Assembly: GCA_017558825.1 (NCBI GenBank)
Contig: JAFYTO010000009.1
Coordinates: 5,617-69,616 of the forward strand
Source: Clostridia bacterium
GTDB lineage: Bacteria; Bacillota; Clostridia; Christensenellales; Borkfalkiaceae
Direction of reading: 5' to 3'
Length of the DNA: 64,000 nucleotides
The notes under the pieces are model-generated. The model made no database searches and had not been told where the DNA came from. It worked only from the letters and a program-made list of their open reading frames with translations. The translations under genes were made by a program, and so were the position numbers. How positions within the stretch are numbered: position 1 is the stretch's first letter; each line of letters begins with the position of its first letter. Below are positions 1,430 to 61,104 of this stretch, in pieces.

Positions 1430-4400
1430 TTACATTATAGGGAAAATAGGCATTAACGTGCCAATCTTTACACCTGAATTTTCAGTTAATAGTTGTACCC
1501 AGAAAGAAGTTGGATTTTCTGAAAGTAAATCTATTTTACCAACGCTAGGGTCAAGCATTGTGCCTAAAGACGTAAAGTCAACGGGGGCATTATTATCATC
1601 AAGAGTTTTAACTATAACATAAGGAATTTTTAATAAGGTTTCTTCCCACTCTGTTGCTTTGCCTGTTTGTTGATAGAATATAGCAAAGTTGAATGCCTCG
1701 CTTTTACCTTCTTTTTTAATACAAGTAAAGTTTTGAGCTAGCAAACCTGTATTAAGAGAGGTTTTTATTCTTGGAGCAACAATACTCATACCATAAGCAG
1801 TAAACCATGATTCCTCACCTGTTACCCAGTTAGAAATTTGAGTGTTTTCAAGAACAAGTGTAGAGTTTTGTACTGTAGCATCAGGGTATGGTGCGCAGTC
1901 AAAGTGAATTGCAGCACCGCCACTACTCTTAATTGTAGAGTTCTTAACAGTTAAGTGGTTAAGGTAGAACGTACAAATGCTGTTAGCCCAGTTGTTGTCA
2001 ATATAGCAATCGTCTAAAACTGATTTTGTTGCATAACCATTTGCGCCAGCAGTTGTAGCATCGCTATCGCCTGAAATAAAGAAACCGATAAGTGAGTTTC
2101 TAATAGCAACGTTAGTAGCGTTTAAGTTACCGCCCATAATGCGTAGTGTATTATATGAAGCACTCATTGTATAGTAGCTTTCGCCGCCTTTACCATACGT
2201 AGTTGTTACGTCTGAAAGTTCAGTATTGTTACCAAATATAGCTAAGTTTTCAATATTAAACGTGTTGTTATTGTTTACCGCAGTGTTCATGTCGTTTGGA
2301 GCGTGCGACATATAAGAGAAGATAAACGCGTGGTGGTTTACAACTCTTTCCGTACCAGGCTCCATACCAGCAAACGTTACCCACGTATTAGCAAGACCGC
2401 CGTTTACGCGTGGAAGGTTAGTTGCGTCAAGTTTAAATGAGTTACCATTGATAGAAATGCTATCGTTAGCGCCTACTGTGCTACGAGAATATACCCAACC
2501 GTTCTTCATAACGTCAGTATTAATGCTACCGTCATTATTATAAGAATTTTCACTTATAAATCCATCATTGTATTGATATTTTTCAGTAGTAATATTATAT
2601 AAGGTGTGGTAAGGGTTGTGTACGTTGCCGTCAACGTATTGGTTGCTAGTAAGTTCAGCCTTAATATCTCTTAAAACGTTAATTTCGCTTATCTCAAGGT
2701 TAGCAAACGCAGCGCGTAATTCATCGTTAGTGTAAACGTTAACGCCGTTGTTAATAGTAACTTTGACATCTTTTGCAGAAACTTCATTACCGCCAGTATA
2801 GTATTTAGGAGTGAACGTAAACGTGTAAGTTGCACCGTCAGTTAAGTCTGCTAAATTGAAGCCTGTAGCAGAGTTGTATTCTGAAGTGTCAATAACAATA
2901 GTGTCATTAGAACCTGCTTGTTTAGCAGTAATAATAACGTTACCTTCGCTAAAGCCCATAACGCCGTTTCTACCTTCAATAGTAATGTCTGGTTTATAAC
3001 CGTTTGCTTTACCAACGCTCATAGCGTCAACTAATTTTTTAGAGTTAAAGTTTTCTGCGTTTCTAGTATCGTTTAGAACAAAGCTTGCAATACGTTCAAC
3101 AACTTTAGCGTTTCTTACGTAAGTTACGTTAGTATCATCAACCACTTTAGTAATAGTCAACTCAAATTCACCAGTTTTGCTTGGAGTAAATGCATTGTTT
3201 TGAACGTCAACTAAAGTATTAGCAGAAACAGTCATATCAGCGCTTGTAAAGTTATAGTTTACGCCAGTAAAGAATACGTAAGTATATTCACTAGCTTCAT
3301 TATAATGTGCTTTTTCTTTAAAGTATTCCGTGCCGTTAGGGTGGAATAAGTTGTATTGAGCATCAGTTGAATTTTCACCAACTTCAACTTCAAGTTTTTC
3401 CCAAATAACTTCAATTAAAACGTTAGTTGCTTTTACATATTCAGCGTTAGGGTTGAAAGTAGTAGAAGTGCCATATTCAACAAATTTAATGAATTTGTAA
3501 CCGTTTTTAGTTAAAGTTGAAATAACAGGAACTTCGCCAAATAATACGTCAACAGTAATTCTAGATGGTTGACCGTCTGCACCGTTAGTTACAATTTCAA
3601 TAGTAAACGCTTTTTTAGCAAATTTAGCATAGAGTGAAATGTTGTCTGTTACTTTGTAAGTAGCTAAATCAACAGCTTGAGTGCAAGCTTTGTCAAAGTA
3701 AACTGTGCCACCAACAAGTTCGTAACCTTCTTGAGCTTCAGGTAATTGAGCTAAAGAAATTAAGCTGTTGTATTCTAATTTAAGAGTGTTGCCAAGTTGA
3801 CCGTCATTTTCACTGCTTAAGAATACTACGTCATAAACGTTAATAGTCCAAGTAGCAAAAAGGGTAATATTGTCAAGTTTAGAGAAAGCAGCGTTTGTGT
3901 CAAATGGTACGCCGTTCCACGTATAGCCTGCAAAAGTATAACCTGTTAAAGTAGGAGTGCCAAGTGTGTAAGTTGTGCCGTATGCTACTTGAATAGGAGC
4001 AACTGCAGAACCACCGTTAGCGTTTACAGAAATAGTAAATACTTCGGCAGTAAATTTAGCGTAAAGAGTAATGTCGCCAGCAACAACGGTATCAGTAAAT
4101 GCAGTTTGAAGATTTGCATCAACGAACCAGCCGTCAAACTTATAACCAGTTTTTGTAAGAACAGGTAAAGTGTTGGCTTTTACGCTATCGCCAAGTTCAA
4201 CGTCTCTTTCATAATCAGTAAGTTCATTTTCGCCGTCTTTGAAAATTACTTTTCTATCATTGAAACCTTCTTCAGCTTCCCAAGTAGCATCAATAGTAAT
4301 GTCACTTGTAAAGTTATAAGTGCCAGTTAATGCGAATGCTTGACCGTTGTAAACGTAGCCGTTAAAATTGTAACCTGTTCTAGTAGGGTTAGCAATTAAA

Positions 4401-5623
4401 GTGTAAGTGCCTTTATATAATACTGTTACGTTTTGAATATCGTCACCACCGTTTTTGTTAATTTTGATAGTGAATTGTTTTGCTGTAACTTTAACGTAAA
4501 GGTCAGCGTTTTGAGTTACTTTATAAGTAGCTAAATCAACTTCTTGTGTGCAAGCTGCATCACTATACACTTTACCGTTTGCAATTTCATAACCTGCTTC
4601 TACTTGAGGAAGTGCAACTGTAGAATTGTGTGTTAAAGTTAAAGTGTTGCCAAGTTGAGCATTAGAGTTGTTTGCATCAAGGAATTTAACAGCGTAAGTA
4701 GCAACTTCGTAAGTGGCAAATAAAGTAATGTTAGAAGTATTTTCAAACGTGCCGTTTAAAGCAAACGGAGCACCGTTAAACGTATAACCTGTAAATACGT
4801 AACCAACTTTTGTAGGGGCAGGGAGAGTGTATTGAGCGTTGTAAGCAATTTGCATAGCGTCAATAGCATTACCGCCGTTAGTATTGAAAGTTACAGTGTA
4901 TTTTTTTGCTGCAACTTTAACGTAAAGGTCAGCGTTTTGAGTTACTTTATAAGTAGATAAATCAACTTCTTGTGTGCAAGCTGCATCACTATACACTTTA
5001 CCGTTTTCAATTTCGTAACCAGTAGGAACTGACGGAATAGAAGTTACTTTAGAGTTGTATTCTAAAGTTAAAGTGTCGCCAAGTTGAGCGTTATTGTCGT
5101 TTGCGTTTAAGAACTTAACGTTATAGGAGTTTATAGTCCAGGTAGCAAAAAGTTTAATGCTGTTAGTTTCTGTGTAAGTTCCTGTAGTAGGAAATTCTTC
5201 ACCGTTCCACATGTAACCAGCAAAAGTGTAGCCTTCTCTAGTAGGAATAGGAATGCTGTAGCTAGAGTTGAACTCAACTGTTTGAGGTTCAACGCTACTT
5301 CCGCCGTTACTGTTAACTTGAACAACTAAGCTTCGTTTTTCATACTTTAAATATAAAGCAAGGTCGGCATTGAGTTTACCAAATGATTGAGAATCAAATT
5401 CATCTGTCAACTCTTTGTCATAGTACGCGCCTACGTATTTATAACCTGGTTTAGTGATGTCTTCAAGGTCACTATTTAAAGGTAAAGAATCGTAGGTCTT
5501 TACTACTTCGGTGCCATCGTAAATTGAAACCGTGAACGTCTGTTGTTTACATGCAACAAAAGTTAAGGTTACAATAGATAAGATGAGCGCCATTAAAATT
5601 GTTTTTAATGCTTTTCTATACAT
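1430..5623 (-). CDS. Giant surface lipoprotein with Listeria-Bacteroides (Flg_new-type) repeats and a C-terminal parallel beta-helix-like domain
   Basis: 1397-aa ORF with SD AAAGGAGG upstream. The N-terminus MYRKALKTILMALILSIVTLTFVAC is a signal peptide plus lipobox Cys. There are about ten G-Y-x-F-x-G-Y/W repeat cores (e.g. KTGYKFDGWFVDANLQTAF, REGYTFAGYMWNG). The C-terminal third has beta-helix-like rungs (NIENLAIFGNN, VAIRNSLIGFFISGD, LTVKNSTIKSSGGAAIHFD). Confidence 0.85.
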   Translation of the reverse strand: MYRKALKTILMALILSIVTLTFVACKQQTFTVSIYDGTEVVKTYDSLPLNSDLEDITKPGYKYVGAYYDKELTDEFDSQSFGKLNADLALYLKYEKRSLVVQVNSNGGSSVEPQTVEFNSSYSIPIPTREGYTFAGYMWNGEEFPTTGTYTETNSIKLFATWTINSYNVKFLNANDNNAQLGDTLTLEYNSKVTSIPSVPTGYEIENGKVYSDAACTQEVDLSTYKVTQNADLYVKVAAKKYTVTFNTNGGNAIDAMQIAYNAQYTLPAPTKVGYVFTGYTFNGAPFALNGTFENTSNITLFATYEVATYAVKFLDANNSNAQLGNTLTLTHNSTVALPQVEAGYEIANGKVYSDAACTQEVDLATYKVTQNADLYVKVTAKQFTIKINKNGGDDIQNVTVLYKGTYTLIANPTRTGYNFNGYVYNGQAFALTGTYNFTSDITIDATWEAEEGFNDRKVIFKDGENELTDYERDVELGDSVKANTLPVLTKTGYKFDGWFVDANLQTAFTDTVVAGDITLYAKFTAEVFTISVNANGGSAVAPIQVAYGTTYTLGTPTLTGYTFAGYTWNGVPFDTNAAFSKLDNITLFATWTINVYDVVFLSSENDGQLGNTLKLEYNSLISLAQLPEAQEGYELVGGTVYFDKACTQAVDLATYKVTDNISLYAKFAKKAFTIEIVTNGADGQPSRITVDVLFGEVPVISTLTKNGYKFIKFVEYGTSTTFNPNAEYVKATNVLIEVIWEKLEVEVGENSTDAQYNLFHPNGTEYFKEKAHYNEASEYTYVFFTGVNYNFTSADMTVSANTLVDVQNNAFTPSKTGEFELTITKVVDDTNVTYVRNAKVVERIASFVLNDTRNAENFNSKKLVDAMSVGKANGYKPDITIEGRNGVMGFSEGNVIITAKQAGSNDTIVIDTSEYNSATGFNLADLTDGATYTFTFTPKYYTGGNEVSAKDVKVTINNGVNVYTNDELRAAFANLEISEINVLRDIKAELTSNQYVDGNVHNPYHTLYNITTEKYQYNDGFISENSYNNDGSINTDVMKNGWVYSRSTVGANDSISINGNSFKLDATNLPRVNGGLANTWVTFAGMEPGTERVVNHHAFIFSYMSHAPNDMNTAVNNNNTFNIENLAIFGNNTELSDVTTTYGKGGESYYTMSASYNTLRIMGGNLNATNVAIRNSLIGFFISGDSDATTAGANGYATKSVLDDCYIDNNWANSICTFYLNHLTVKNSTIKSSGGAAIHFDCAPYPDATVQNSTLVLENTQISNWVTGEESWFTAYGMSIVAPRIKTSLNTGLLAQNFTCIKKEGKSEAFNFAIFYQQTGKATEWEETLLKIPYVIVKTLDDNNAPVDFTSLGTMLDPSVGKIDLLSENPTSFWVQLLTENSGVKIGTLMPIFPIM
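4481..4594. repeat. Intragenic near-identical repeat, copy 1 (unit offset 426 bp)
   Basis: The 114 nt at 4481..4594 align without gaps to 4907..5020 with 4 mismatches by my alignment. They encode GKVYSDAACTQEVDL(A/S)TYKVTQNADLYVKV. Confidence 0.9.
4907..5020. repeat. Intragenic near-identical repeat, copy 2
   Basis: Same as the 4481..4594 entry. A more diverged third copy lies around 3640..3760. Confidence 0.9.
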
Positions 5624-6086: not shown

Positions 6087-7727
6087 TTATATTTGCATAT
6101 CGTTAAAGTATGCTTTTAAGTAACTGTTTAATAAATAAATTCTTATAACCAAAAATGCTACGGCAAGTAAAATTACTCTAATCCAGCCTGAAATATATCC
6201 GTCAAATAAAAGTAAGAGTGATATAACGCCTGCAAATATTGAAATTATAAAACCTGTAAATACAGATTTTGAAACGTTAGGATTGTCCGTATAAGAGTCG
6301 CCTTTTACTATGTATTCTTTAACTTTTGGATTAAATACGTCAAACGTAAAGTTCCACATTAAAGTTCCCAAGCTAACGCATAAAATTGTAGCTACCATAA
6401 GAACTAAATCTATAGTGGTAAGGTTGCTTATATACACTAGCACAAGAGTGCTTGTTATAACGGCTAATACGTTAACGATAGCAATAACCGTCATTTTAGC
6501 GTAGCAAACCGGAATTGTGTTAGACGGTGCCATTTTTAAAAGGGCAAAGCCTTCGCCTTCTTGTGAAAGAGCAGTTGAAGCGTTAGAGTTATATACGCTA
6601 AGCAAGCTAGTTATAATCATAACGTTAAACGAAACTGCCATAAACGAGCCAAGTTGGCTTGTGTTTATTGCTGAAAGTATAAAGTTTAAAACGTATATTA
6701 AAATAGGATATACTAGTATAACTGATATTGCGCTATTTAAATTGTCAGACGAGCGGAATAAAAGCTTAAACTCTTTATCAAGGAACGTTGCAAACAAGCC
6801 TTTAGATTTTCCAGTTTTTGAAACCTTGCGCTTCTTTGATGAACTGCTTTCTGCACTAGAGCTTGCCGTTTTAAAGAAGAAAGGCATTATTGCCATAAAA
6901 CATATTGCCATAACTGCAACTAACGCTCCAAGCAAAATAAGTGAGTTAAGTAAAATACTTTCGCCAAACATAAGGTTGCCTAAGCATCTATAGTAAAGCG
7001 AGTAGGTATATGCAGTAGCAAACACGTGTTCAACTGTTTCCATAAATTTGCCGTAAATGGCAATAATTCTAATTGGTCTTGGAATAAGTGATAAAACGTA
7101 GTCAACAAAGAAGAAAACAGCCGTTAAAACTACTATTAAAAGCGCTGCACGAATAATAAGATGACGCTTTAAAAACTTTGACGTGTTAGTTATAATTACT
7201 GAAAACGAAGTTCCAATAAATACAGGGAATAGGCAAAGCAAGAACCAGCAAGGAATTAAGAAAATAAAGTATACTGCCGTAGCCTTTATAACTATGCCGT
7301 AAGCGAGTAAAAGCGGAAGTAAAAAGAACGCGCTTTTTGTTATTTCATTATATATAAATATTAATATTTTGCTTATAAAAACTTCGCTATGCTTACAAGG
7401 GTAAACAAGAAGCATAGAGTTTTCTTTTTTACCGAATAAAACGTTTGAAGAACTTGTTGCAACCGAGAACGCGTCAAAAACTTGTATAAGTAAAATAATG
7501 CTTGTAAAGGTTGCGGAATTAAGCTTGAAATAAAATAGCGAAGACATTATGTATAAAACGCCGAATATTACCGCCGTTACCGCAATAAACGCTAAAAGTT
7601 TTAAAAAGAAAGTAAATATGCGCTTTTTAAAACTTCCTGATGGGCGTAATTTTTCGCCAATTTGCAAAAGAAGCAAATATTTTAAACGCAAAAGCGAATT
7701 TTTAAAATTTGTTAAAAAGTTTGACAT
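6087..7727 (-). CDS. Polytopic membrane protein, probable permease partner of the adjacent ABC ATPase (resembles the putative ABC-exporter permease family)
   Basis: 546-aa ORF with more than 10 hydrophobic segments and SD AAGGTG upstream of the ATG at 7727. Its start lies 10 nt after the stop of the upstream ABC gene. The family assignment is from memory of the architecture only. Confidence 0.6.
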   Translation of the reverse strand: MSNFLTNFKNSLLRLKYLLLLQIGEKLRPSGSFKKRIFTFFLKLLAFIAVTAVIFGVLYIMSSLFYFKLNSATFTSIILLIQVFDAFSVATSSSNVLFGKKENSMLLVYPCKHSEVFISKILIFIYNEITKSAFFLLPLLLAYGIVIKATAVYFIFLIPCWFLLCLFPVFIGTSFSVIITNTSKFLKRHLIIRAALLIVVLTAVFFFVDYVLSLIPRPIRIIAIYGKFMETVEHVFATAYTYSLYYRCLGNLMFGESILLNSLILLGALVAVMAICFMAIMPFFFKTASSSAESSSSKKRKVSKTGKSKGLFATFLDKEFKLLFRSSDNLNSAISVILVYPILIYVLNFILSAINTSQLGSFMAVSFNVMIITSLLSVYNSNASTALSQEGEGFALLKMAPSNTIPVCYAKMTVIAIVNVLAVITSTLVLVYISNLTTIDLVLMVATILCVSLGTLMWNFTFDVFNPKVKEYIVKGDSYTDNPNVSKSVFTGFIISIFAGVISLLLLFDGYISGWIRVILLAVAFLVIRIYLLNSYLKAYFNDMQI

Positions 7728-29553: not shown

Positions 29554-29815
29554 AAAAAAAGCCCGTGAACTAATTGTTCACGGGACGAATGTATCGCGGT
29601 GCCACCCGAATTGACGCTTAATGCGCCCACTTTTAACGTTTGTAAAACGCTGCATTTTTACAAGTGCAACCTTGTCGGCTACTACTAACTTACGCTTTCG
29701 CTCCGCCCTCAACAGCCCATTCATTAAGCTTCTTGGTTTTGTTACACCAACCCAAAACTCTCTAAACAAGAAAAACTAAATTACTACTCTGCATCACAGG
29801 TTTATTATATAAATT
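29554..29815 (-). promoter_or_regulatory. T-box riboswitch leader, tryptophan specifier (UGG)
   Basis: Read on the minus strand: an AGAGAG box, a distal GGTTGGTGTAAC loop, the specifier context AATGAA-TGG-G, and an AGTA-like box. The T-box sequence is CAATTCGGGTGGCACCGCG. The terminator GCCCGTGAAC..GTTCACGGGC plus T7 lies at 29554..29585. Confidence 0.85.
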
Positions 29816-45688: not shown

Positions 45689-45700
45689 TAAAAAATAAAA

Positions 45701-45728
45701 AAAAGCAAGGCAAACGCCTTGCTTTTTT
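45701..45728. repeat. Terminator hairpin, direct-repeat copy A1 (left boundary of cassette 1)
   Basis: AAAAGCAAGGCAAACGCCTTGCTTTTTT (stem GCAAGGC/GCCTTGC, loop AAAC). It is identical over 28 bp to 46368..46395. Confidence 0.9.
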
Positions 45729-45734
45729 TTAATA

Positions 45735-46049
45735 TTAATAATAGTAGTTTAATAAAGATGATAAAGAAATTCCGTAAATAATACCAAAAACAACAGATAT
45801 ACAAATACTAATTACAAAAGCCGTAACCCAACCACTCATAAAAGTTTTTCTTTCCTCAGTTTCAGGTTGGTATATACAAAGACCAATAATTAAGCCAATT
45901 AAGCCTAAAAAGAAACCTAATAAAAGCCCCATACCCTTTTTACTTTCACCAGTGCTTACAGGTGTATTTTTTTTGTTTGTTGCACACCCACAATTTGGGC
46001 AAATAATAGCATCATCATTTATCTCTTTGCCACAAGTTCTACAAAACAT
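45735..46049 (-). CDS. Zinc-ribbon membrane protein
   Basis: MFCRTCGKEINDDAIICPNCG (C-x2-C...C-x2-C) followed by two hydrophobic helices. The ATG at 46049 is preceded by AAAGGAGG. Confidence 0.7.
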   Translation of the reverse strand: MFCRTCGKEINDDAIICPNCGCATNKKNTPVSTGESKKGMGLLLGFFLGLIGLIIGLCIYQPETEERKTFMSGWVTAFVISICISVVFGIIYGISLSSLLNYYY

Positions 46050-46105
46050 AATAAATTCCTCCTTTGAATAAAACTGCATTATTTAATTGCACTGAATTTA
46101 TTATA

Positions 46106-46122
46106 TTCTCAAATATTGAGAA
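46106..46122. promoter_or_regulatory. Inverted repeat TTCTCAA-N3-TTGAGAA in the divergent promoter region of cassette 1
   Basis: Perfect 7-bp arms. A further TTCTCAA half-site lies at 46134..46140, just upstream of the XRE gene. Confidence 0.5.
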
Positions 46123-46160
46123 AGTCAAGTAATTTTCTCAAATTTTGATACAATTATAGT

Positions 46161-46364
46161 ATGAGTAATAAATTTTCTTACAATTTAAAAAAATTAAGAG
46201 TTGAAAGGGGATTGTCGCAAAAACAATTGGCGGAAGTTTTGCAAACTACGCTTAAAACAATTTCGCATTGGGAAACGGGCTATACGGAGCCGTCTATTGA
46301 TTTAATTTTAAGAATATCTACTTATTTTGATATTTCAACCGATGAACTTTTAGGAAAAGAGTAA
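46161..46364 (+). CDS. XRE-family helix-turn-helix transcriptional regulator
   Basis: 67-aa ORF with LKKLRVERGLSQKQLAEVLQTTLKTISHWETG, a canonical HTH_3. Confidence 0.85.
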   Translation: MSNKFSYNLKKLRVERGLSQKQLAEVLQTTLKTISHWETGYTEPSIDLILRISTYFDISTDELLGKE

Positions 46365-46367
46365 AAT

Positions 46368-46395
46368 AAAAGCAAGGCAAACGCCTTGCTTTTTT
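46368..46395. repeat. Terminator hairpin, direct-repeat copy A2 (right boundary of cassette 1)
   Basis: The same 28-bp sequence as 45701..45728. The flanking A/T runs differ only in homopolymer length. Confidence 0.9.
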
Positions 46396-47570: not shown

Positions 47571-47735
47571 TTACCAATCCTGCCTATCGCTTATTTTAAT
47601 ATCGTCATAATACTCAAAGTATTTTGACTTAAATTTTGCCGTTTCCGCCTTAGCTTTAGCTTTTTTAATTTGTTCTATAGTAGGTTTTTCTTCCTTTTTA
47701 GGCGGTTGTAAATTCTTTTTATTCTCGTTTTCCAT
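47571..47735 (-). CDS. Candidate small protein (54 aa, Lys/Glu-rich), below the ORF-track cutoff
   Basis: By hand translation: [54 protein letters not shown]. It fills the whole mnmG-Dabb gap. Its start overlaps the mnmG stop, and its stop lies 1 nt before the Dabb ATG. There is no clear SD. Confidence 0.35.
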   Translation of the reverse strand: MENENKKNLQPPKKEEKPTIEQIKKAKAKAETAKFKSKYFEYYDDIKISDRQDW

Positions 47736-49596
47736 CGTTTGATTTTAGCCATACCATAAGCACCGCAATATCTGCAGGGTTTACGCCGGAAATTCTTGAT
47801 GCTTGGTCAAGGTTAAGTGGCTTTACCTCGTTTAATTTTTCTCTTGCTTCAACACGCAAGCCGTTAATGTTTAAATAATTGATATCATCGCCAAGCAACT
47901 TATTTTTTAATTTTTCTGCTTTTTTAATGCTATCAAGTTCTTTTTTAATGTAGCCGGCGTATCTAACGTCTGTTTCAACGGTTTCTAAAATATCAAAAGG
48001 AATACCTTCAAAAGCGTTAAATTGCTCTTTAATGAGTTTTATAGATATTCCTCGCTTAATCATATCTTCGTAAGTTATTGCGCCGTAAATTTCGCCTGTA
48101 GAATTCTTTGTAACAAAGTCGTAGGCTTGCTTATATGGTACGGAAGTTTTAAGTTCTTCATTAGCGCGTTTAGTAATTTCACACCTATCTAAATAAACTT
48201 GCCACCTTTCATCATCAACAAGCCCAAAATTTCTACCTATTTCAGTCAAGCGAACGTCAGTATTATCTTGCCTTAAAATAAGGCGATATTCCGCGCGTGA
48301 AGTCATTATTCTATACGGTTCGTTAGTGCCTTTTGTAACTAAGTCGTCAATCAAAACGCCAGCGTAGGCTTCGTTTCTACCTAAAACGAGCTGTGGTTTA
48401 TTTTTCATAAGCATACTTGCGTTTAAGCCAGCAATTAAGCCTTGCACGGCGGCTTCTTCATATCCGCTTGTTCCGTTAATTTGACCAGCAGTAAATAAAC
48501 CGCTAACGTTTTTATATTCAAGGGTAGGCTTAAGGTCTAAACTATCAATACAGTCGTATTCTATAGCGTAGGCGTAACGCATAAAGTGCGCGTTTTCAAA
48601 ACCTTCAACAGAGCGATACATTTGCTCTTGTACGTCAACTGGCATTGAAGAAGACATACCTTGTACGTAAACTTCATTAGTGTCAACGCCTTCGGGCTCT
48701 AAAAAGATTTGATGGCGCTCTTTATCTGAAAATCTTACCACCTTAGTTTCAATAGAAGGGCAGTAACGTGGGCCTGTAGTAGTAATAACGCCGTTATATA
48801 GTGGAGACCTTTCTAAATTGCTTAAAATAATTTGTTTTGTTTGTTCGTTGGTATAACCTAAATAGCAAGGCGTTTGTTCCTTTTTTAGCTCTTTTGTCAT
48901 GTAAGAGAAAGGGTAAACGTCTGTTTCGCCGTCTTGCACGGTAAATTTAGAATAGTCAATAGTTCTGCCGTCAAGGCGGGCAGGAGTGCCCGTTTTAAAA
49001 CGGCGAATTTTAAAACCCAAACGAATAAGAGCATCAGTTAAATAAGTTGCGTTTTGAAAGCCGTTAGGCCCGCTAAATTTTTTATATTCACCAATAACAA
49101 TATCGCTATTCAAATACACGCCGGTTGCAACTACTACAGTTTTGCAGTTGAGCAACGTATTAAAGTTAGTAACAACGCCTGTAACAGTGCCGTTTTCCGT
49201 TAAAATATCAGTTGCTTCGCATTGAATAATAGATAAATTAGGCGTATTTTCAAGCGTTTTTTTCATTTCTCTATGGTAAGCGTTTTTATCCGCTTGCGCT
49301 CTAAGAGATTGAACAGCAACGCCTTTACCACGGTTAAGCATTTTAATTTGGAGCATAGTTTTATCTATATTCTTGCCCATTTCGCCACCTAAAGCGTCAA
49401 GTTCACGAACTAAATGCCCCTTTGCCGTGCCGCCTATAGAAGGGTTGCACGCCATAAATGCAATAGCGTCTAAGTTTATTGTTAGAAGCGCGGTTTTATT
49501 ACCCGTGCGGGCAAGTGCCAAGGCAGCCTCGCAACCAGCGTGGCCTGCACCTATAACAACCGCGTCATAATTGTCAATTTTAATATAGTTATTCAT
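47719..49596 (-). CDS. mnmG: tRNA uridine 5-carboxymethylaminomethyl modification enzyme MnmG (GidA)
   Basis: 625-aa ORF with the FAD motif VIGAGHAGCEAA, plus GPRYCPSIE and TSRAEYRL. Confidence 0.95.
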   Translation of the reverse strand: MNNYIKIDNYDAVVIGAGHAGCEAALALARTGNKTALLTINLDAIAFMACNPSIGGTAKGHLVRELDALGGEMGKNIDKTMLQIKMLNRGKGVAVQSLRAQADKNAYHREMKKTLENTPNLSIIQCEATDILTENGTVTGVVTNFNTLLNCKTVVVATGVYLNSDIVIGEYKKFSGPNGFQNATYLTDALIRLGFKIRRFKTGTPARLDGRTIDYSKFTVQDGETDVYPFSYMTKELKKEQTPCYLGYTNEQTKQIILSNLERSPLYNGVITTTGPRYCPSIETKVVRFSDKERHQIFLEPEGVDTNEVYVQGMSSSMPVDVQEQMYRSVEGFENAHFMRYAYAIEYDCIDSLDLKPTLEYKNVSGLFTAGQINGTSGYEEAAVQGLIAGLNASMLMKNKPQLVLGRNEAYAGVLIDDLVTKGTNEPYRIMTSRAEYRLILRQDNTDVRLTEIGRNFGLVDDERWQVYLDRCEITKRANEELKTSVPYKQAYDFVTKNSTGEIYGAITYEDMIKRGISIKLIKEQFNAFEGIPFDILETVETDVRYAGYIKKELDSIKKAEKLKNKLLGDDINYLNINGLRVEAREKLNEVKPLNLDQASRISGVNPADIAVLMVWLKSNDGKRE

Positions 49597-49597
49597 A

Positions 49598-50946
49598 TTA
49601 TTTTTTCAAAATCAAGTTTTTAATGTCGCTAACCGAGGTTGCAATTTTATCGCTAAACTTAATAAGTTCCGCAATTTTATCGCGAGAGTGAATAATGGTA
49701 GTGTAATTTTTACCACCAAGTTCTTCGCCAATAGTAACAAGTGGAATAGACATAAGTTCCGTCATTAAATATGCGCAAATTTGGCGTGGAATAACAAGTT
49801 CTTTGTTACGCTTTTTAGAAGTTAAGTCAGCCTTAGAAATTTTATAGTAAGTGCAAACTGTATTTATGACTTTTGAAGCAGAAATACTTTCTTTAATTTC
49901 GCTTGTAACGCTATCCTTAAGCGCCTCCATTGCAAGAGGTAAACTGATAGGCTCTTCGTGAAGGGTAGAGAAGAATATAACTCTATTAAGCATACCTTCT
50001 AAACTTCTAACGTTGTCTTCGCTATTTTCAGCCATAAACATAGCAACGTCAAGCGGTAAAATGAATTTTTTATATTCGGCTTTCTTTTGTAAAATTGCAA
50101 CTTTTGTTTCAACGTCTGGCGCTAAAACCTGAGCTTTTAAACCGCCTTCAAAACGAGTTCTTAATCTTTCGTCTAAAAGTTCAATTTTGCTTGGCTCACA
50201 GTCTGCAGATAAAACAATTTGCTTGTTTTCACCATAAAGAGCGTTAAAAGTATTAAAAAATTCTTCTTGAGTCGTTTCTTTGCGTGCTAAGAATTGCACG
50301 TCATCAATAATTAAAACGTCAACGTTGCGATATTTATTTCTAAAATTTTCGCCTTCTTGAGAGTAAGCTTTGCCCGTTTTAATGTTTGTAATAAGTTCTG
50401 TTGTAAACTTTTCGCAAGTAGAGTAAAGAACTTTCTTTTTAGGCATTGTTTTGTGTATATGGTTTGCAATTGCTTGCATTATGTGCGTTTTACCAAGACC
50501 AGAAGCACCGTAAATAAAGAGTGGGTTATAAGAATCTCCTGGGGCTTCGGCTACAGCTTTTGCCGCAGCGTATAAATAACGGTTAGAACCGCCTACAACA
50601 AAAGAATCGAACGTATATTTAGGGTCAATAGGCGAAGATTCAATATGAATTTTATCTTCTCCAAACAAATCATCTTTACTTTCTAAGTATTCTTTTTTGC
50701 TAGAGCCTTGGAAAATAACTATATCAGTAACGCCGGTATTAAGTTCTTTAAGTTTATCTACAATTTTCGTTTTAAGGTTAGTTCTTATCGTTTTTGCAAA
50801 AACCTCTGCTTTTGTAAGCAACACTAAAGTTGAGCCAACCAAATCGATAGGCTCAAGAACCTTTATAAAAGTAGTGTAATTTGCCGTAGAAATTGAATTT
50901 TCTAATTCGGGCAAGGCTTTTTTCCAAATAATTTCGTAACTTTCCA
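49598..50946 (-). CDS. dnaA: Chromosomal replication initiator DnaA
   Basis: AAA+ Walker A GASGLGKTH, box VII, and a C-terminal DNA-binding domain (GGKNYTTIIHSRDKI). The ATG at 50946 is preceded by GGAG; the ORF-track start at 50959 is a non-ATG codon. Confidence 0.95.
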
Positions 50947-51098
50947 TAAAAAACTCCAATAAAAGCGGTTAAACTTTTGTTTATTTTTGCAAAATGTGAT
51001 AAAATATACTTAAGAATACATTAAAAATGCGCAATTTTATACTTGTAAAGTATATTATATAATAAATTAGCGCAAAAATCAATTATTAAAGTATCAAA

Positions 51099-52226
51099 AT
51101 GTTTATAAAAAATTTAATTTTAAAAAACTATCGCAATTACGAATATCAAGAATTTAACTTTTGTAACGGCGTAAATATTTTAACTGGTGACAATGCTCAA
51201 GGTAAAACCAACTGTGCCGAGGCTATTTTTTATCTTTGCACGGGCTATTCGCCAAGGGCAACGCGTGATAAGCAAGTTATTAAGTACGGGCAAGACAGTG
51301 CAAAAATTATTGGCACCGCAACTTCTAGCTACGGCAACGTTGAAGTTGAATTGAGTTTTTATAACAACGCTAACAAAGGCATTAAAATAAACGGCGTTCC
51401 TATTAAAAAAATAGGCGAACTTATGGGCAATATAAATTCAGTTTTCTTTAACCCGGGCGAACTTAAGCTTATTCAAGAAAGCCCAGAAGATAGGCGCAGG
51501 TTTATGGATATTTCACTTTCGCAAATGAGCAAGCGTTACTTTTACGCGCTTCAAAAATATCGCAAAGTGTTAGAACAACGTAACGACCTTTTAAAGTCAA
51601 ACGACAAGCAAACTATTTACGATACGCTCTCTTTTTGGGACGAGCAGCTTGCCGTTTATGCCGAAACAATTATCAAAGAAAGGCTTTTGTTTATTGAAAA
51701 ATTAGTTCCACTTGCAAAAAAAGCGCACTCGTATATTACTGGTAACAGTGAAGAAATTTCAATTTCTTTAGAAGCTCAATATTTAGATGAAGAAGACGAG
51801 TTTTTGCAAAGCCCAACAAGCCATTTAGAAAAAGACGTTAAAAAGTGCTTGTTATTAGCATTAACAAAACGTATTGAAAAAGACATTGCGCTTGGATATA
51901 CCAGCGTAGGCCCACACCGCGACGATATTAAAATTAAAATAAATAATGAAGACGTAAGGCTTTACGGCTCTCAAGGTCAACAAAGAACAAGCGCACTTTC
52001 GCTTAAACTTGCCGAACTTGAAGTGTTTAAAAATAGGTTTAACGAATACCCGGTTTTAATTTTAGACGATGCTTTTAGCGAGCTTGACAAGTCTAGGCGT
52101 TCACGCTTACTTAGCTACGTTGACGGCGTTCAAACAATTATAACCTGTACTGACGTAACAGAAGATATGTTAACAAGCAGTAATATTAAAGTATTTAATA
52201 TTAAAAACGGAAAAATTGAAGAATAA
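51099..52226 (+). CDS. recF: DNA replication and repair protein RecF
   Basis: 375-aa ORF with NYRNY, Walker A GDNAQGKTN, signature GSQGQQRT and Walker B LILDDAFSELD. Confidence 0.93.
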   Translation: MFIKNLILKNYRNYEYQEFNFCNGVNILTGDNAQGKTNCAEAIFYLCTGYSPRATRDKQVIKYGQDSAKIIGTATSSYGNVEVELSFYNNANKGIKINGVPIKKIGELMGNINSVFFNPGELKLIQESPEDRRRFMDISLSQMSKRYFYALQKYRKVLEQRNDLLKSNDKQTIYDTLSFWDEQLAVYAETIIKERLLFIEKLVPLAKKAHSYITGNSEEISISLEAQYLDEEDEFLQSPTSHLEKDVKKCLLLALTKRIEKDIALGYTSVGPHRDDIKIKINNEDVRLYGSQGQQRTSALSLKLAELEVFKNRFNEYPVLILDDAFSELDKSRRSRLLSYVDGVQTIITCTDVTEDMLTSSNIKVFNIKNGKIEE

Positions 52227-52231
52227 TATGC

Positions 52232-52259
52232 AAAAAACCACGGTAAAAACCGTGGTTTT
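52232..52259. repeat. Terminator hairpin, direct-repeat copy B1 (left boundary of cassette 2)
   Basis: AAAAAACCACGGTAAAAACCGTGGTTTT (9-bp stem AACCACGGT/ACCGTGGTT). It is identical over 28 bp to 53151..53178. Confidence 0.9.
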
Positions 52260-52768
52260 TATGTTAAATTTTCATATAAATTTATGATTTGCTTTTTATT
52301 TTTAATGGCGTAATCATAAGCAATTTTAGTTCCGCTATTACGCCTTGCAGGCGCAAAAATATCGCGCTTGCTTTGTTTTTTTCTTGTAGGTAAATAATTT
52401 TTATTATAGTAAAAAACACAATAAGTTGAAAGGTTAATCATTTCATAATTTCGCTCAACATACGAATATTTGCCTGCGTTTTCTATTTTTTTAGGAAAGT
52501 AAGTTTCTTCGTATGATTGTAACAACATTTCAGTATAAGATGTGTTTATATACTGAAAAGCCGCCCTTACATAAACACGCTTAATAAATGGATATTCGTT
52601 TTTGAGTTGCGTTACTATTTCCCAAGACAAATCGTCAAATTCGCTATTGCTACCAAACAAAAAAGTTGTAGCGCCTTTTTTTATTAGTAAAATCACGGTT
52701 TCTTTTAATAAAATTTTTAGTTTTTCACTTATTTCAATATTTTTATGACCTATAAAGCAAACTTGCAT
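52259..52768 (-). CDS. SLOG-superfamily protein, DUF1273 / YpsA-YoqJ-like
   Basis: 169-aa ORF. It is colinear with Bacillus YpsA-type proteins: VCFIGHKNI (vs AITGYKP), TTFLFGSNSEFDDLSWEIV (vs ILISGQLGVELWAAEAA), and EYPFIKRVYV (vs EYPDLKVAVI). SD AAGGTG. Confidence 0.6.
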   Translation of the reverse strand: MQVCFIGHKNIEISEKLKILLKETVILLIKKGATTFLFGSNSEFDDLSWEIVTQLKNEYPFIKRVYVRAAFQYINTSYTEMLLQSYEETYFPKKIENAGKYSYVERNYEMINLSTYCVFYYNKNYLPTRKKQSKRDIFAPARRNSGTKIAYDYAIKNKKQIINLYENLT

Positions 52769-52780
52769 AGCGCACCTTTA

Positions 52781-52910
52781 TTCGTGGAATTCCACAAATA
52801 ATTATACAAAATTTACAACATAAAGTCAATATCGTGGAACTCCACGAGATAAAATTTTGTAGAATTCATATAATAATTTCGTGGAAAAACATAAAGGAAC
52901 TCCACGAAAG
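52781..52910. promoter_or_regulatory. Array of palindromic operators (consensus TCGTGGAAyTCCACGA) in the divergent promoter region of cassette 2
   Basis: Site 1 is TTCGTGGAATTCCACA (52781-52796), containing a 12-bp perfect palindrome. Site 2 is TCGTGGAACTCCACGA (52832-52847). Site 3 is split: the left half TTCGTGGAA (52878-52886) and the right half GGAACTCCACGAA (52896-52908) abut the SD of the HTH gene. Confidence 0.65.
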
Positions 52911-52917
52911 GTGAAAT

Positions 52918-53151
52918 ATGAATATAAATGATGCAATAATTAAAAGAATTGAAGAAATTTGCAATGAAAAGAATATTAACATTTGCGGAGCAGCATTAAA
53001 TGGTGGAAAATCGCCATCCGCAATATATGATTTAATTAAAGGTAGAACAAAATGCTCAAAAGTTTCTACAATAAAAGCCTTTTGTCAAGGCGCAGGAATA
53101 ACTTTATCTCAATTTTTTGATAAAGATTATTTTAATGATTTTGAAGATTAA
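52918..53151 (+). CDS. Small helix-turn-helix (XRE/Cro-like) regulator
   Basis: 77-aa ORF with SD AAAGGTG. It has a short HTH-like core (SPSAIYDLIKGRTKCSKVSTIKAFCQGAGITLSQFF). It is divergent from the SLOG gene. Confidence 0.6.
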   Translation: MNINDAIIKRIEEICNEKNINICGAALNGGKSPSAIYDLIKGRTKCSKVSTIKAFCQGAGITLSQFFDKDYFNDFED

Positions 53152-53178
53152 AAAAACCACGGTAAAAACCGTGGTTTT
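53151..53178. repeat. Terminator hairpin, direct-repeat copy B2 (right boundary of cassette 2)
   Basis: The same 28-bp sequence as 52232..52259. Confidence 0.9.
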
Positions 53179-53189
53179 ATTTTTTTATT

Positions 53190-53393
53190 TTATCCCATTA
53201 AAACTTCGCTAATAACTTCTAAAACTTTTTGGTAGCAGCCGCCGCAACCTGTTGAGCAATGAGTAACGTTTTGCACGTCTTCAAAAACTCTAATAGCGTC
53301 TTCCATTTTAGTGTGGTTATGTAATGCTTTAGCAATGTCTGCATAGCTTACTTGTTTACAGTTGCAAATCATATAGTTTTCTTTATTTTCCAT
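53190..53393 (-). CDS. BFD-like [2Fe-2S]-binding domain protein
   Basis: 67-aa ORF with a C-x-C...C-x2-C cysteine pattern (ICNCKQV ... CSTGCGGCYQKV). SD AGAGGTG. Confidence 0.7.
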   Translation of the reverse strand: MENKENYMICNCKQVSYADIAKALHNHTKMEDAIRVFEDVQNVTHCSTGCGGCYQKVLEVISEVLMG

Positions 53394-53411: not shown

Positions 53412-54869
53412 TTAGCGTTGTTTTTTATTTTTTCTTTTTTCTTTTAATGCTAATTTTTGCGCTTTTAAATATGCGCGTTTTTCAGCACTAGTCATAACAA
53501 TAGGGCTTTTTGTAGGCTCATCTACTGCTGATTTAATAGAGTAATAAACGTATTTATTAGCGACTTTTACAGGTTTATTTACAAATTTTAAGTAATTTTC
53601 ACTAATATTTTCAGTTAAATCAATAGTAATTTTGCCAACTGCAAATGCAGGAAGTTCGTAAATTTTAGAAGTCATACATTCGCTATAACTAGCGTATGGA
53701 TTTATGTAGTTTTTCTTCCTTAACATTTTTGCTATTTTACGCCTTACTTTATTTTCACGTTTAACGCGTTTAAAGTTAAAGTAGTTGAATAGGTATGTAA
53801 TGAATAAAACTCTATTTTTAAATTTGGCAAGTAATTTTAATTTGCGTTTTAAAAGCCTTAATTGAAGTCTATAATTTTTATCGCCAATTTCGCAAGTTAT
53901 TAAATCGCAAATAATAATTGAGTTTTTGCCTAATTTAGTAACGTATGGTAAAAGTTTTTTAAATGATTTTTTATTAATTTCTGCTGATAAATTATAATAG
54001 TCAACCTTTAATTTTGTAGCCGTTTCAAACGCAATAGAAAGCGATGGTTTATCAATTTCGCTTGCAGCCAAACCGTTACTGCCTAAAAATACAATATTTT
54101 TAGAAGGCATTTCGTACACTTGTGGAATTTCAGTTAAACCCTCAACTCCAACAAATAATACGTTGCGTGTAGGAAGTAATATACGAACTACGTTGTTTGC
54201 AAAACCTTTATTAGCCTTTTTAGCGTCTTTTTTAGAAACTTTTTTAGGAACGGCTGGAATAAGGGATTTTTCAAAAACGTATTCTAAAACCTCATCATCC
54301 TTTATAATAAGCGAATAATCTTTGCCAGCAAAGTAATTTCCAAAGTAAACTTCTACTTGTGCAGGGGATTGACCGTTTAAAAGTTTAAGTTTAATGCTAA
54401 CCGTATCTGAAACGAGTTTAAATCTTAACTCTGTGCCGAGTGAAAGGTCGTTGAAAGTTTTATACGGTTCAAGAACGCTTTCTTTAAGAGTATCTTCTTC
54501 AGTTTGCTCTACTTCTTCAGCCTCGTTTTCTTCTTGAATTTCTTCACTCTCTGTTTCATCTTGAACTTCTTCAGTTTCGCTGTCTTGAATTTCTTCTATT
54601 GCTTCAGGTTCAGCGTTTTCAGCAGGTTCTAAAACGTCAGCTTGTTCGGCATCGTTTACTTCTAAAGCTTCATTTATGTTATTGGCATTTTCTTCAAAGT
54701 TAGGAATAGTTTCTTTGTTAGAAACAGTTACTTTGTTTTTATTTTTGCCTGAAGACTTTTGAAATAAAACGTCATCATCAAAACGGCTAAGTAAATAATT
54801 GCCGTCTTCATCTTTTTTCATTAAATTTACGTTGTGAAAATAAATGTTATTGTAATACATAAAATACAC
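53412..54869 (-). CDS. Hypothetical protein with a roughly 65-aa poly-acidic insert and a basic C-terminus
   Basis: 485-aa ORF. The acidic tract is EQADVLEPAENAEPEAIEEIQDSETEEVQDETESEEIQEENEAEEVEQTEED. The C-terminus is KRAYLKAQKLALKEKRKNKKQR. No family was recognised. Confidence 0.55.
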   Translation of the reverse strand: MYFMYYNNIYFHNVNLMKKDEDGNYLLSRFDDDVLFQKSSGKNKNKVTVSNKETIPNFEENANNINEALEVNDAEQADVLEPAENAEPEAIEEIQDSETEEVQDETESEEIQEENEAEEVEQTEEDTLKESVLEPYKTFNDLSLGTELRFKLVSDTVSIKLKLLNGQSPAQVEVYFGNYFAGKDYSLIIKDDEVLEYVFEKSLIPAVPKKVSKKDAKKANKGFANNVVRILLPTRNVLFVGVEGLTEIPQVYEMPSKNIVFLGSNGLAASEIDKPSLSIAFETATKLKVDYYNLSAEINKKSFKKLLPYVTKLGKNSIIICDLITCEIGDKNYRLQLRLLKRKLKLLAKFKNRVLFITYLFNYFNFKRVKRENKVRRKIAKMLRKKNYINPYASYSECMTSKIYELPAFAVGKITIDLTENISENYLKFVNKPVKVANKYVYYSIKSAVDEPTKSPIVMTSAEKRAYLKAQKLALKEKRKNKKQR

Positions 54870-60794: not shown

Positions 60795-60917
60795 AAAAAA
60801 ATAAAAAAGCAAGTTTAGAAACTTGCCTTGCCAAAACTTACCACGATACTTCTTCAATAGTCGCAAACTGGGCGTTGCGGTAGAAACTTACGGGCCTAAA
60901 ATTCCGTAGATATATTG
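60795..60917 (-). promoter_or_regulatory. Purine riboswitch (guanine/xanthine class, C at the discriminator) with terminator expression platform
   Basis: The minus-strand aptamer is CAATATATCTACGGAATTTTAGGCCCGTAAGTTTCTACCGCAACGCCCAGTTTGCGACTATTG, with conserved AAGUUUCUACC and GACUAU. The terminator GCAAGTTTCTAAACTTGC plus a T-run lies at 60795..60826. Confidence 0.85.
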
Positions 60918-61104
60918 ACAAGTTATTTATTTATATACTTATTTTAAAGTATAAAATTGCGTTTGTCAACAATATTTTAAAAATAATTATATTATTTAAA
61001 ATATAACCTTAAATTGCCATTCGCCGTTTTACGAATTTATTTGACAAATTTTCTTTAAATACTTTAAAAATTTAGTGGTATATTTTTCTAAAAAGGTGAT
61101 ATGT

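Follow-up and report, generated by a model that had tools for sequence, protein, structure and literature searches.

An accessory SLOG–HTH cassette bracketed by identical terminator hairpins, with signs of recombinase-free relocation, in uncultured Clostridia

The DNA analysed is a stretch of 64,000 nucleotides from a Clostridia bacterium of the family Borkfalkiaceae (assembly GCA_017558825.1, contig JAFYTO010000009.1, positions 5,617 to 69,616), referred to here as the window. Coordinates are positions in this 64-kb window, and L-numbers (L004, L102 and so on) denote related loci or lineages obtained from database scans. Between recF and a gene for a BFD-like [2Fe-2S] protein, the window carries a unit of two divergent genes, one for a 169-aa protein of the SLOG fold and one for a 77-aa helix-turn-helix (HTH) protein, bracketed by two identical copies of a terminator hairpin (H). 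We lean towards reading this unit as a compact, self-regulated accessory cassette, seated in the convergent recF/BFD terminator and moved as a small circle by host recombination. The protein families are known; the pairing of an XRE protein with a SLOG protein, its conserved repressor circuit and its recombinase-free, repeat-bracketed relocation are, to our knowledge, undescribed, and literature searches returned no account of cassettes enclosed by duplicated or identical terminators and none of a YpsA-XRE pair.

The arrangement of the genes had been described in a sequence-only reading of the window and was found to be correct in every detail. The left flank of the insertion site is formed by recF (51099-52226, plus strand; Pfam SMC_N and AAA_23), which served to find empty and occupied alleles. 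Hairpin H copy 1 (52232-52259) is the terminator common to recF and to the minus-strand SLOG gene, and its last base overlaps the SLOG stop codon. The SLOG gene (52259-52768, minus strand; assigned by PF06908 and fold match) encodes the presumed effector, of the YpsA/DUF1273 family. A gap of 149 bp, given by the open reading frame (ORF) layout, separates it from the plus-strand gene for the 77-aa Cro/CI-type (XRE) HTH protein (52918-53151; profile and fold match), the presumed repressor of both promoters. Hairpin H copy 2 (53151-53178) is the terminator of the HTH gene and also ends the convergent BFD-like gene (53190-53393, minus strand; PF04324, E 3.5e-10), which forms the right flank; this exact repeat of copy 1 stands in place of the terminator native to the junction, termed X below.

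The 28-mer AAAAAACCACGGTAAAAACCGTGGTTTT is present as exact copies at 52232-52259 and 53151-53178, with a start-to-start spacing of 919 bp, and no further copy with up to 3 mismatches was found within the 64-kb window. On either strand, both copies of H fold into an 11-bp stem with a 4-nt loop (dG -15.7 to -18.1 kcal/mol, z about -4 to -5.5); the values for copy 1 are -18.1 and -16.9 kcal/mol on the two strands. A- and T-runs flank both copies, and since the T-runs flank the folded stem in both directions, the copies were taken to be bidirectional intrinsic terminators. The stop codons of both cassette genes pass straight into the A/T tracts of the hairpins. Only two repeated hairpin pairs occur in the 64 kb, one at this cassette and the other at a second unit, Cassette 1 (45701/46368), described below. 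A chance match or an assembly artefact would draw on the general likeness of A-tract/GC-stem/T-tract terminators and on nothing more; none of 100 dinucleotide-preserving shuffles gave such a match, the structure was recovered in 7 independent contigs, and reads and k-mers of 141 nt span the 28-bp repeat. We regard this explanation as practically negligible.

The same reading had taken the pair for an insertion and had proposed a comparison with relatives, and this comparison bears the insertion out. In the window's own strain the cassette was present in 7 of 7 contigs, assembled independently from several samples. In L102 and L103, in which RecF is 94% identical, the recF/BFD junction is empty and the two genes are directly convergent: the recF stop codon is followed by taaat, AAAAAAGACTGGCTAAAAAGCCAGTCTTT and the BFD stop codon, that is, by the single terminator X, which has a different stem. 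X reads GACTGGCT-AAAA-AGCCAGTC both in the empty site and in L004. The latter, a sister lineage of L102/L103 (91% nucleotide identity across dnaA-recF and 97-98% around BFD), carries the cassette in the order recF-tatgc-A6-H-SLOG-control-HTH-A8-X-BFD. In L104 the recF-side H has a 2-nt loop variant and the BFD-side H is exactly as in the window; at the position of copy 1, L004 and L104 thus both have H with loop variants of 1-2 nt. The pair and the BFD gene are both absent from L096 and L097 (90%), and likewise from L100 (71%) and L099 (77%). Because relatives have an empty recF-X-BFD junction, the unit is an accessory insertion and X is the native terminator. Duplication of the native terminator as a target site was ruled out for recF/BFD, the empty site having X and not H.

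When the window was compared with the empty site and with L004, only the stem-loop of X was found to be replaced by H, the A-tract and the T-rich flank being homologous. The nucleotide identity between the window and L104 is 95-100% over the cassette, against 86% over dnaA-recF, which argues that lineages have recently exchanged the cassette, presumably through homologous recombination in its flanks. The cassette alleles of the window and L004 are mosaic: the HTH gene and control region (52794-53093) share 95-98% nucleotide identity, the centre of the SLOG gene (52497-52596) 72%, and the flanking housekeeping genes 86%. In L096 (5129-5441) and L097 (5129-5440), where RecF is 90% identical, a non-coding stretch of 313 bp with several short hairpins replaces SLOG-HTH-BFD.

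A scan of one genome per GTDB species gave 80 loci, all from uncultured Christensenellales-type Clostridia. At 46 of these loci the SLOG gene is preceded, about 150 bp upstream, by the same 77-aa HTH gene in divergent orientation; this HTH77 pair is present in at least 46 Christensenellales species. The pair had been tied to the dnaA-recF region, a link that did not hold, as in most species it lies elsewhere. Most neighbouring genes are peculiar to one species, and few species pairs share a site. Convergent neighbours surround 25 of the 36 pairs for which both neighbours are visible (counted by hand). A metagenome scan based on the HTH protein added 15 mostly short loci, without usable flank data. 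In both L005 and L009 the cassette is flanked by jag and queT, but it points in opposite directions in the two, and the repeats around it are not the same.

A CCACG...CGTGG hairpin was found at most 80 nt past the HTH stop codon in 18 of the 46 species, at many different loci, and past the SLOG stop codon in 4 of the 46. As the background in the same loci is 2 such hairpins in 433 kb, H is considered to be the cassette's own HTH terminator. The bracketing hairpins are identical, as had been claimed; they are not the footprint of a target, being two copies of a terminator that belongs to the cassette. In L004 and L046 H is present only after SLOG, an order that, judged from the sequence, amounts to a circular permutation, as of a circle opened at another point.

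Of the 46 HTH77 pairs, 9 are bracketed by exact direct repeats, and 2 more by identical stems with loop variants. The exact repeats measure 28 bp in the window, L009, L038 and L039; 24 bp in L005, where H is retained inside the repeats; 26 bp in L049 (about 40 bp with one mismatch); 31 bp in L045, where the repeat is not a terminator and the cassette's own hairpin lies inside; 49 bp in L033; and 132 + 61 bp in L020. In L020 the repeated segment is the 3' end of a lyase gene of the aspartase/fumarase family and is fused in frame to the SLOG gene, and the same structure was recovered in an independent assembly (L121) as a 247-nt repeat of 98% identity. SLOG units without HTH77 are also bracketed, by repeats of 22-23 bp (L017 and L021), 30 bp (L079), 39 bp (L075), 48 bp (L073) and about 110 bp (L029). 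In L019 (about 5585-5615 and 6530-6560) the flanking stems are identical and the loop is flipped (AATTTT and AAAATT), so that the copies are inverted and not direct; L035 has a flipped or variant copy likewise.

In the 873 kb scanned, comparable non-tandem repeats away from SLOG units were few, amounting to several pairs of 18-25 bp and one 29-bp pair in adjacent paralogous ORFs (L016); three further repeats bracket other small XRE cassettes, two of them the window and L004 versions of Cassette 1 and the third a unit in L069. Taken together, the bracketing repeats are 22 to 247 bp long, and their sequence changes from lineage to lineage. The boundary hairpins are unlike between species (H, GGGCAACGC, GACTAACGA, GCACGCTTT, GCGAGAGCA and others), and some repeats contain no hairpin.

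The earlier reading had also remarked on the lack of a recombinase, and none is encoded within the unit. No transposase was found in the unit, and no integrase adjoins it in the window, L004, L005 or L009. Because the repeats vary in sequence by lineage and in length from 22 to 247 bp, they are unlike the marks of a transposase, integrase, Xer or integron integrase. An insertion sequence (IS) or transposon was ruled out by the absence of a transposase, by the repeat length, which is not fixed, and by the divergence of copies within one genome (66-76% identical). Mobilisation of the IS200/IS605 type, considered on account of a Y1 transposase beside the L004 Cassette 1, was rejected on the grounds that the repeats are lineage-specific and that some are long coding segments. 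A Xer/dif-like or attC-like site, considered on account of the 10-6-10 architecture of the 28-mer, was rejected on the grounds that the boundary sequences differ per lineage and that no integrase adjoins.

In the mechanism that we propose, H-SLOG-control-HTH-H would be equivalent to a 919-bp circle, having one hairpin between two convergent stop codons and opened within H. The predicted junction of the circle or of a tandem, from the HTH stop codon through H to the SLOG stop codon, would read ...GAAGATTAAAAAAACCACGGTAAAAACCGTGGTTTTTATGTTAAATTTTC.... The small circle, or a circularised fragment, would be inserted by the host through a single crossover of the Campbell type, and the direct repeats left behind would be the sequence common to circle and target: the cassette's own hairpin, target terminators of 22-49 bp, or the 247-bp piece of a neighbouring gene, which would have been picked up on the circle by imprecise excision. 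In L004, which may be a limiting case, the crossover would lie in the A-run ahead of both stems. Close lineages would also swap the cassette by ordinary homologous recombination in the flanks. RecA-type recombination has a minimal length of roughly 22 bp, and all the bracketing repeats are at or above this length.

Several points weigh against such movement. Neither a circular form nor an excision junction was observed, circles being beyond assembly data. A solo-H empty allele (recF-H-BFD) had 0 matches in one JGI metagenome search, an uninformative null. The history at recF/BFD is ambiguous, as a gene conversion of X to H over 900 bp and an integration at an H site would look alike. The diversity of contexts among distant species could in part be ordinary genome rearrangement. 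Second copies within one genome, at 66-76% identity, bear no sign of recent copy-and-paste; this divergence rules out an IS-like proliferation, and it follows that the unit relocates or is exchanged and is not multiplied.

Some of these points are taken up by an explanation in which the unit is an immobile chromosomal stress-response module, its varied context is normal rearrangement, and the identical hairpins are a product of local gene conversion, perhaps selected against read-through into the SLOG gene. Such a module would agree with the age of the HTH and SLOG genes and the purifying selection on them (see below), with a copy number of 1-2 and divergent second copies in the same genome, and with the pattern at recF/BFD, where a change confined to the stem-loop, between a homologous A-tract and T-rich flank, is what short-patch conversion would give. 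In addition, a strong terminator between BFD and SLOG would matter, the two genes being on the same strand. However, the presence of the pair differs among lineages with 90-94% identical RecF, and its orientation between the same flanks is opposite in L005 and L009. Conversion of terminators cannot yield the 31-bp non-terminator repeat of L045 or the coding repeats of 110-247 bp, the position of H is circularly permuted in some species, and repeats are enriched around the unit. An immobile module is therefore considered unlikely, and the relocating cassette is retained as the preferred reading in what follows.

The assignment of the 169-aa protein to the SLOG superfamily, YpsA/DUF1273 family, had been made from the sequence and is upheld by profile and predicted fold. 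The window protein matches PF06908 (YpsA/DUF1273) with 28.4 bits against a gathering cut-off of 27.7 (E 1.9e-6), a borderline score for this protein alone; 31 of 32 close homologues also match the family (best E 7.3e-9). An AlphaFold (AF2) model was built on 32 sequences (predicted local distance difference test, pLDDT, 87; predicted template-modelling score, pTM, 0.83). In a Foldseek search with this model B. subtilis YpsA (2NX2) ranked first (template-modelling (TM) score 0.67, prob 1.0), followed by ShosA (8ZVA), H. pylori DprA, a MoCo carrier protein and LOG. Homologues form 2142 clusters at 90% identity, and 45 at 50% identity with E < 1e-30; the source databases label them 'DUF1273 family protein' or 'YoqJ'. 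Searches of PHROGs and NCBIfam with the SLOG and HTH proteins gave nothing informative.

The family has an invariant motif set of its own, CFIGHR, FLFGSxSxFD, AGKxSYxERN and SGTKIAYxYA. YpsA proteins have a conserved GxD/E substrate-binding signature (PMC6459960); in the present family G39-S40-x-S42 is invariant, the acidic residue in FLFGSxSxFD is conserved, and E87-E88 are found, any counterpart of YpsA G53/E55 among these positions being tentative. Across the 46 species with an HTH77 pair the SLOG protein is 54-85% identical to that of the window. Distant SLOG clades (about 50-53% identity) are partnered by other XRE proteins, some beside a phage terminase (L069) and one on a viral contig (L091). 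A second YpsA-family paralogue of 162-163 aa lies directly upstream of dnaN in L005 (257-745) and L009 (11070-11561); in these species the HTH-SLOG pair is also in the origin region, between jag and queT.

The 77-aa protein, which had been called an HTH regulator, is a transcription factor of the XRE or Cro/CI type, as judged from profile and structural matches. Its profile matched 3B7H (prophage Lp1 protein 11) in the PDB with E 3e-5, and its model (pLDDT 74.5) matched the same protein in Foldseek (TM 0.77), with ClgR, DdrO, controller (C) proteins of restriction-modification (R-M) systems and SinR at 0.6-0.7; the Pfam HTH_3 match is weak (E 0.079). Across the 46 species the protein is 83-96% identical to that of the window. 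For comparison, DnaA, RecF and MnmG of L052 are 51%, 56% and 63% identical. Over all pairs of HTH genes the identity at codon positions 1/2/3 is 0.91/0.97/0.52, and since the third positions are saturated, the conservation of the protein reflects long-term purifying selection and not recent spread. Recent horizontal transfer was ruled out on the same ground as the cause of this conservation, except locally, between the window and L104/L004. Apart from the four invariant cysteines C15, C23, C46 and C56, which hint at redox or metal sensing, the XRE fold is an ordinary one. In databases the HTH gene is mostly called as 105 aa, from a GTG start within operator O2 (see below); in the window this start is excluded by an in-frame TGA two codons ahead of the HTH ATG.

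The start-to-start intergenic region (139-157 bp) aligns almost base for base in the 46 species. From the HTH start to the SLOG start, the order in the alignment is the split site TTCGTGGAATTCC...TTCCACGA, TATAAT, operator O2, TTGACT-17 nt-TATAAT and operator O3. In the window, O3 (52782-52797; TTGTGGAATTCCACGA on the minus strand, GGAATTCCACGA) sits downstream of the SLOG -10 box and ahead of the ribosome-binding site, in a block that is conserved in the 46 species. The SLOG promoter (52801-52829, minus strand; TTGACT, 17 nt, TATAAT) matches the consensus at 11 of 12 positions, and both hexamers are conserved in the 46-species alignment. O2 (52832-52847) is a near-perfect 16-bp palindrome, TCGTGGAGTTCCACGA, which abuts the SLOG -35 box and is almost invariant in the 46 species. 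The putative HTH promoter (52869-52907, plus strand) was assigned from sequence, a half-site motif search and conservation; it comprises a -10 box, TATAAT (52869-52874), followed by the split operator O1 (TCGTGGAA ... GGAACTCCACGA, 52879-52907). The operator motif has 5 matches in the 64-kb window against 0.23 expected, all of them in this intergenic region.

From this arrangement we infer that the 77-aa protein binds the TCGTGGARTTCCACGA-type operators of the 149-bp control region and represses the SLOG promoter through O2 and O3 and regulates its own gene through O1 and O2. With O2 abutting the SLOG -35 box, O3 covering the SLOG transcript start and O1 downstream of the HTH -10 box, the SLOG gene would be kept off and the HTH gene would regulate itself. 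Of the earlier claim that the SLOG gene is tightly repressed, the part that stands is that conserved palindromic operators box in its promoter; binding and repression by the HTH protein are the predicted part. The stem of the HTH terminator (AAAACCACGG...CCGTGGTTTT) is kept across species and carries the operator core CCACG/CGTGG in everted order. Cross-species conservation is unusual for a terminator stem, and this one may be a second binding site of the HTH protein or an RNA element.

Overproduced YpsA blocks cell division in B. subtilis, and published work connects the protein with oxidative stress and NAD/ADP-ribose chemistry (PMC6459960, PMC7376506). By analogy, we favour the view that the SLOG-HTH pair acts as a stress-released brake on growth or division: when repression is lifted, the SLOG protein would most likely bind or process a nucleotide-derived ligand and slow growth or division. 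The HTH protein and the operators are extremely constrained, and the SLOG effector is freer yet clearly selected; tight repression of a costly effector fits this difference.

A number of observations count against this functional part. Toxicity of the SLOG protein is predicted by analogy, and the identity to B. subtilis YpsA in the structural alignment is 15%. The SLOG profile gave noise only against PDB sequences, with no solved structure matched, so that a fold search was needed. Linkage to gpsB, as found for YpsA proper, is not seen, gpsB not adjoining the SLOG gene in the window, L004, L005 or L009; the constant neighbour is the 77-aa HTH gene. For the regulator, binding to the operators is predicted from conservation and position.

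A defence or addiction function of the pair is conceivable. In this explanation the unit would be a toxin-antitoxin-like, abortive-infection or anti-phage module, with SLOG as the toxic effector or sensor and the HTH protein as antitoxin and regulator. SLOG folds occur in Thoeris, ShosTA and other conflict systems, ShosA was the second-best structural match, and the cassette is accessory, apparently mobile and tightly repressed. The YpsA family has been tied in the literature to conflict systems and phosphoribosyltransferase (PRTase) partners (PMC6459960). However, the defence models of PADLOC-DB 2.0 gave zero families at E up to 1 for either protein, and no partner, be it a PRTase, a TIR protein or another, is encoded in the unit. 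Its two genes point away from each other, each with a promoter of its own, and do not form one operon as in type II toxin-antitoxin pairs. In those pairs antitoxins usually evolve faster than toxins; here the regulator is far more conserved than the effector. Moreover, a purely transcriptional repressor cannot give post-segregational killing, and the cassette was not found on known phages or plasmids, where the HTH77 pair has only matches of 28-32% identity and a distant clade is on one viral contig. We hold such a module to be quite improbable.

Still more doubtful is a stranded fragment of prophage immunity, in which a CI/Cro-like repressor and a YoqJ-like moron would no longer be mobile by themselves. 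The best structural relative of the HTH protein is the prophage protein 3B7H, SPbeta YoqJ is in the SLOG protein's family, and distant SLOG members (about 53% identity) lie beside a phage terminase with other XREs (L069) or on a viral contig (L091). Against this, the HTH77 pair has no other phage genes flanking it in the window, L004, L005 or L009, both genes are under strong purifying selection, and an exact 0.9-kb unit at many sites with fresh direct repeats is unlike decay.

The brake preferred here, a SLOG gene under a dedicated repressor, shares parts with several known systems. YpsA and SPbeta YoqJ (PF06908) are alike in belonging to the same Pfam family at threshold, in the Rossmann-like SLOG fold and in their small single-domain size. 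Unlike YpsA, which is a syntenic core gene, the cassette SLOG has a dedicated divergent repressor and is accessory and relocating. ShosTA (in which ShosA is a DprA-like SLOG protein) and the YpsA-PRTase pairs are likewise two-gene modules with a SLOG-fold protein; in the cassette, by contrast, the partner is a 77-aa HTH protein and no PRTase is part of the unit, the nearest weak Pribosyltran gene being about 8 kb away and unlinked in other species. C-protein circuits of R-M systems and phage CI/Cro circuits have a similar small HTH fold (C.BclI, C.Esp1396I and C.AhdI were among the structural matches) and a similar use of several palindromic operators by promoters to gate a potentially harmful gene; they differ in that the gene controlled in the cassette is a SLOG gene and not a nuclease or a lytic programme. 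C proteins and CI also activate their own promoters, a trait that the HTH protein may or may not share. A layout of the C-protein or CI type gives a burst of effector expression upon entering a naive cell. By the same analogy, a repressor-gated SLOG gene would fire briefly in a cell without the repressor.

As to movement, the closest parallel is the pcp-mediated cfr(C) circle of Campylobacter coli, in which a recombinase-less cassette is looped out between direct repeats and re-inserted by homology (PMC10770853). In such translocatable units an entire gene or an IS copy, at least several hundred bp long, serves as the repeat, and inverse PCR revealed the circles (PMC10770853), whereas the cassette has repeats of 22-247 bp, often a single terminator hairpin, and its circle is predicted. 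The exchange of the cassette between the window and L104 through the flanks also resembles that of other elements: phage morons and the 'minimal mobile elements' of Neisseria are self-contained units, with their own promoter and terminator, between conserved flanks, and are exchanged by homologous recombination in those flanks. Morons and minimal mobile elements are defined by a site or a phage context, in contrast to the cassette, which is found at many unrelated sites with direct repeats.

Cassette 1 (45697-46395), between gyrA and a GH16 gene, has the same design as the SLOG cassette, with an identical 28-bp hairpin at 45701 and 46368. Its divergent genes encode a Zn-ribbon membrane protein (45735-46079, minus strand) and a 67-aa XRE HTH protein (46161-46364, plus strand). 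The L004 homologue has a 33-bp bracketing repeat and different neighbours (two extra Zn-ribbon paralogues and the Y1 transposase of the IS200/IS605 type). A third type of cassette, in L069 (4819-5487), pairs an acidic 77-aa ORF on the minus strand with a plus-strand gene for a 70-aa XRE protein and has the 24-bp hairpin repeat CAAAGGATAAATTCCTTTGCCCTG on either side. Its neighbours are the gene for the large subunit of a phage terminase and a SLOG gene whose own partner is another XRE protein, of 103 aa. It is conceivable, as a long shot, that units of an XRE repressor and one cargo gene, 0.65-1.2 kb in size, form an undescribed class of recombinase-free mini-elements, tiny circles that insert at convergent terminators through host recombination and so restore a terminator or flank repeat on both sides; the Zn-ribbon/XRE unit (45701-46395) and the L069 unit (4819-5487) also fit this picture. 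In its boldest version the DprA-like SLOG protein would itself be the mobility factor, a burst of it in a repressor-free cell loading RecA onto the cassette DNA and so leading to integration at homologies of at least 22 bp.

Other features of the window were recorded alongside. The origin region (47719-52226) has an unusual order, with recF facing away from mnmG and dnaA, which are on the minus strand; dnaN is missing between dnaA and recF, and gyrB/gyrA are 4-6 kb off. In L005/L009, dnaN is grouped with rnpA, yidC and jag. The 485-aa protein encoded at 53412-54869 (minus strand), which contains an acidic repeat region, had no Pfam or NCBIfam match. It is fast-evolving, being 50% identical between the window and L004 (the BFD-like protein is 82% and the other flanking proteins are 91-98% identical) and 418-492 aa long between lineages (complete calls). 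An ORF of 1397 aa (1430-5623, minus strand), with internal nucleotide repeats of period 426-429 nt that are up to 88% identical, probably encodes a repetitive surface protein. The sole Rfam matches in the window, both on the minus strand, were a T-box leader (29578-29806, 116 bits) and a purine riboswitch (60838-60937, 41.5 bits), and no tRNA genes were found in it.

SLOG proteins of the YpsA family are widespread and their biochemistry is obscure, and a conserved dedicated repressor with its operators offers a direct genetic handle on them. That this repressor is dedicated and extremely conserved hints that uncontrolled expression of the SLOG gene is costly. The cassette also bears signs of relocation in the absence of a recombinase gene, namely empty and occupied alleles, opposite orientations, a permuted terminator and fresh repeats of 22-247 bp. 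If the model of a Campbell-type circle is true, tiny cassettes spread among uncultured gut Clostridia through host recombination and terminators alone, and the build-up of cassettes at convergent-gene junctions would be explained. This would be relevant to how accessory genes, defence genes included, move in genomes that are seemingly poor in classical mobile elements.

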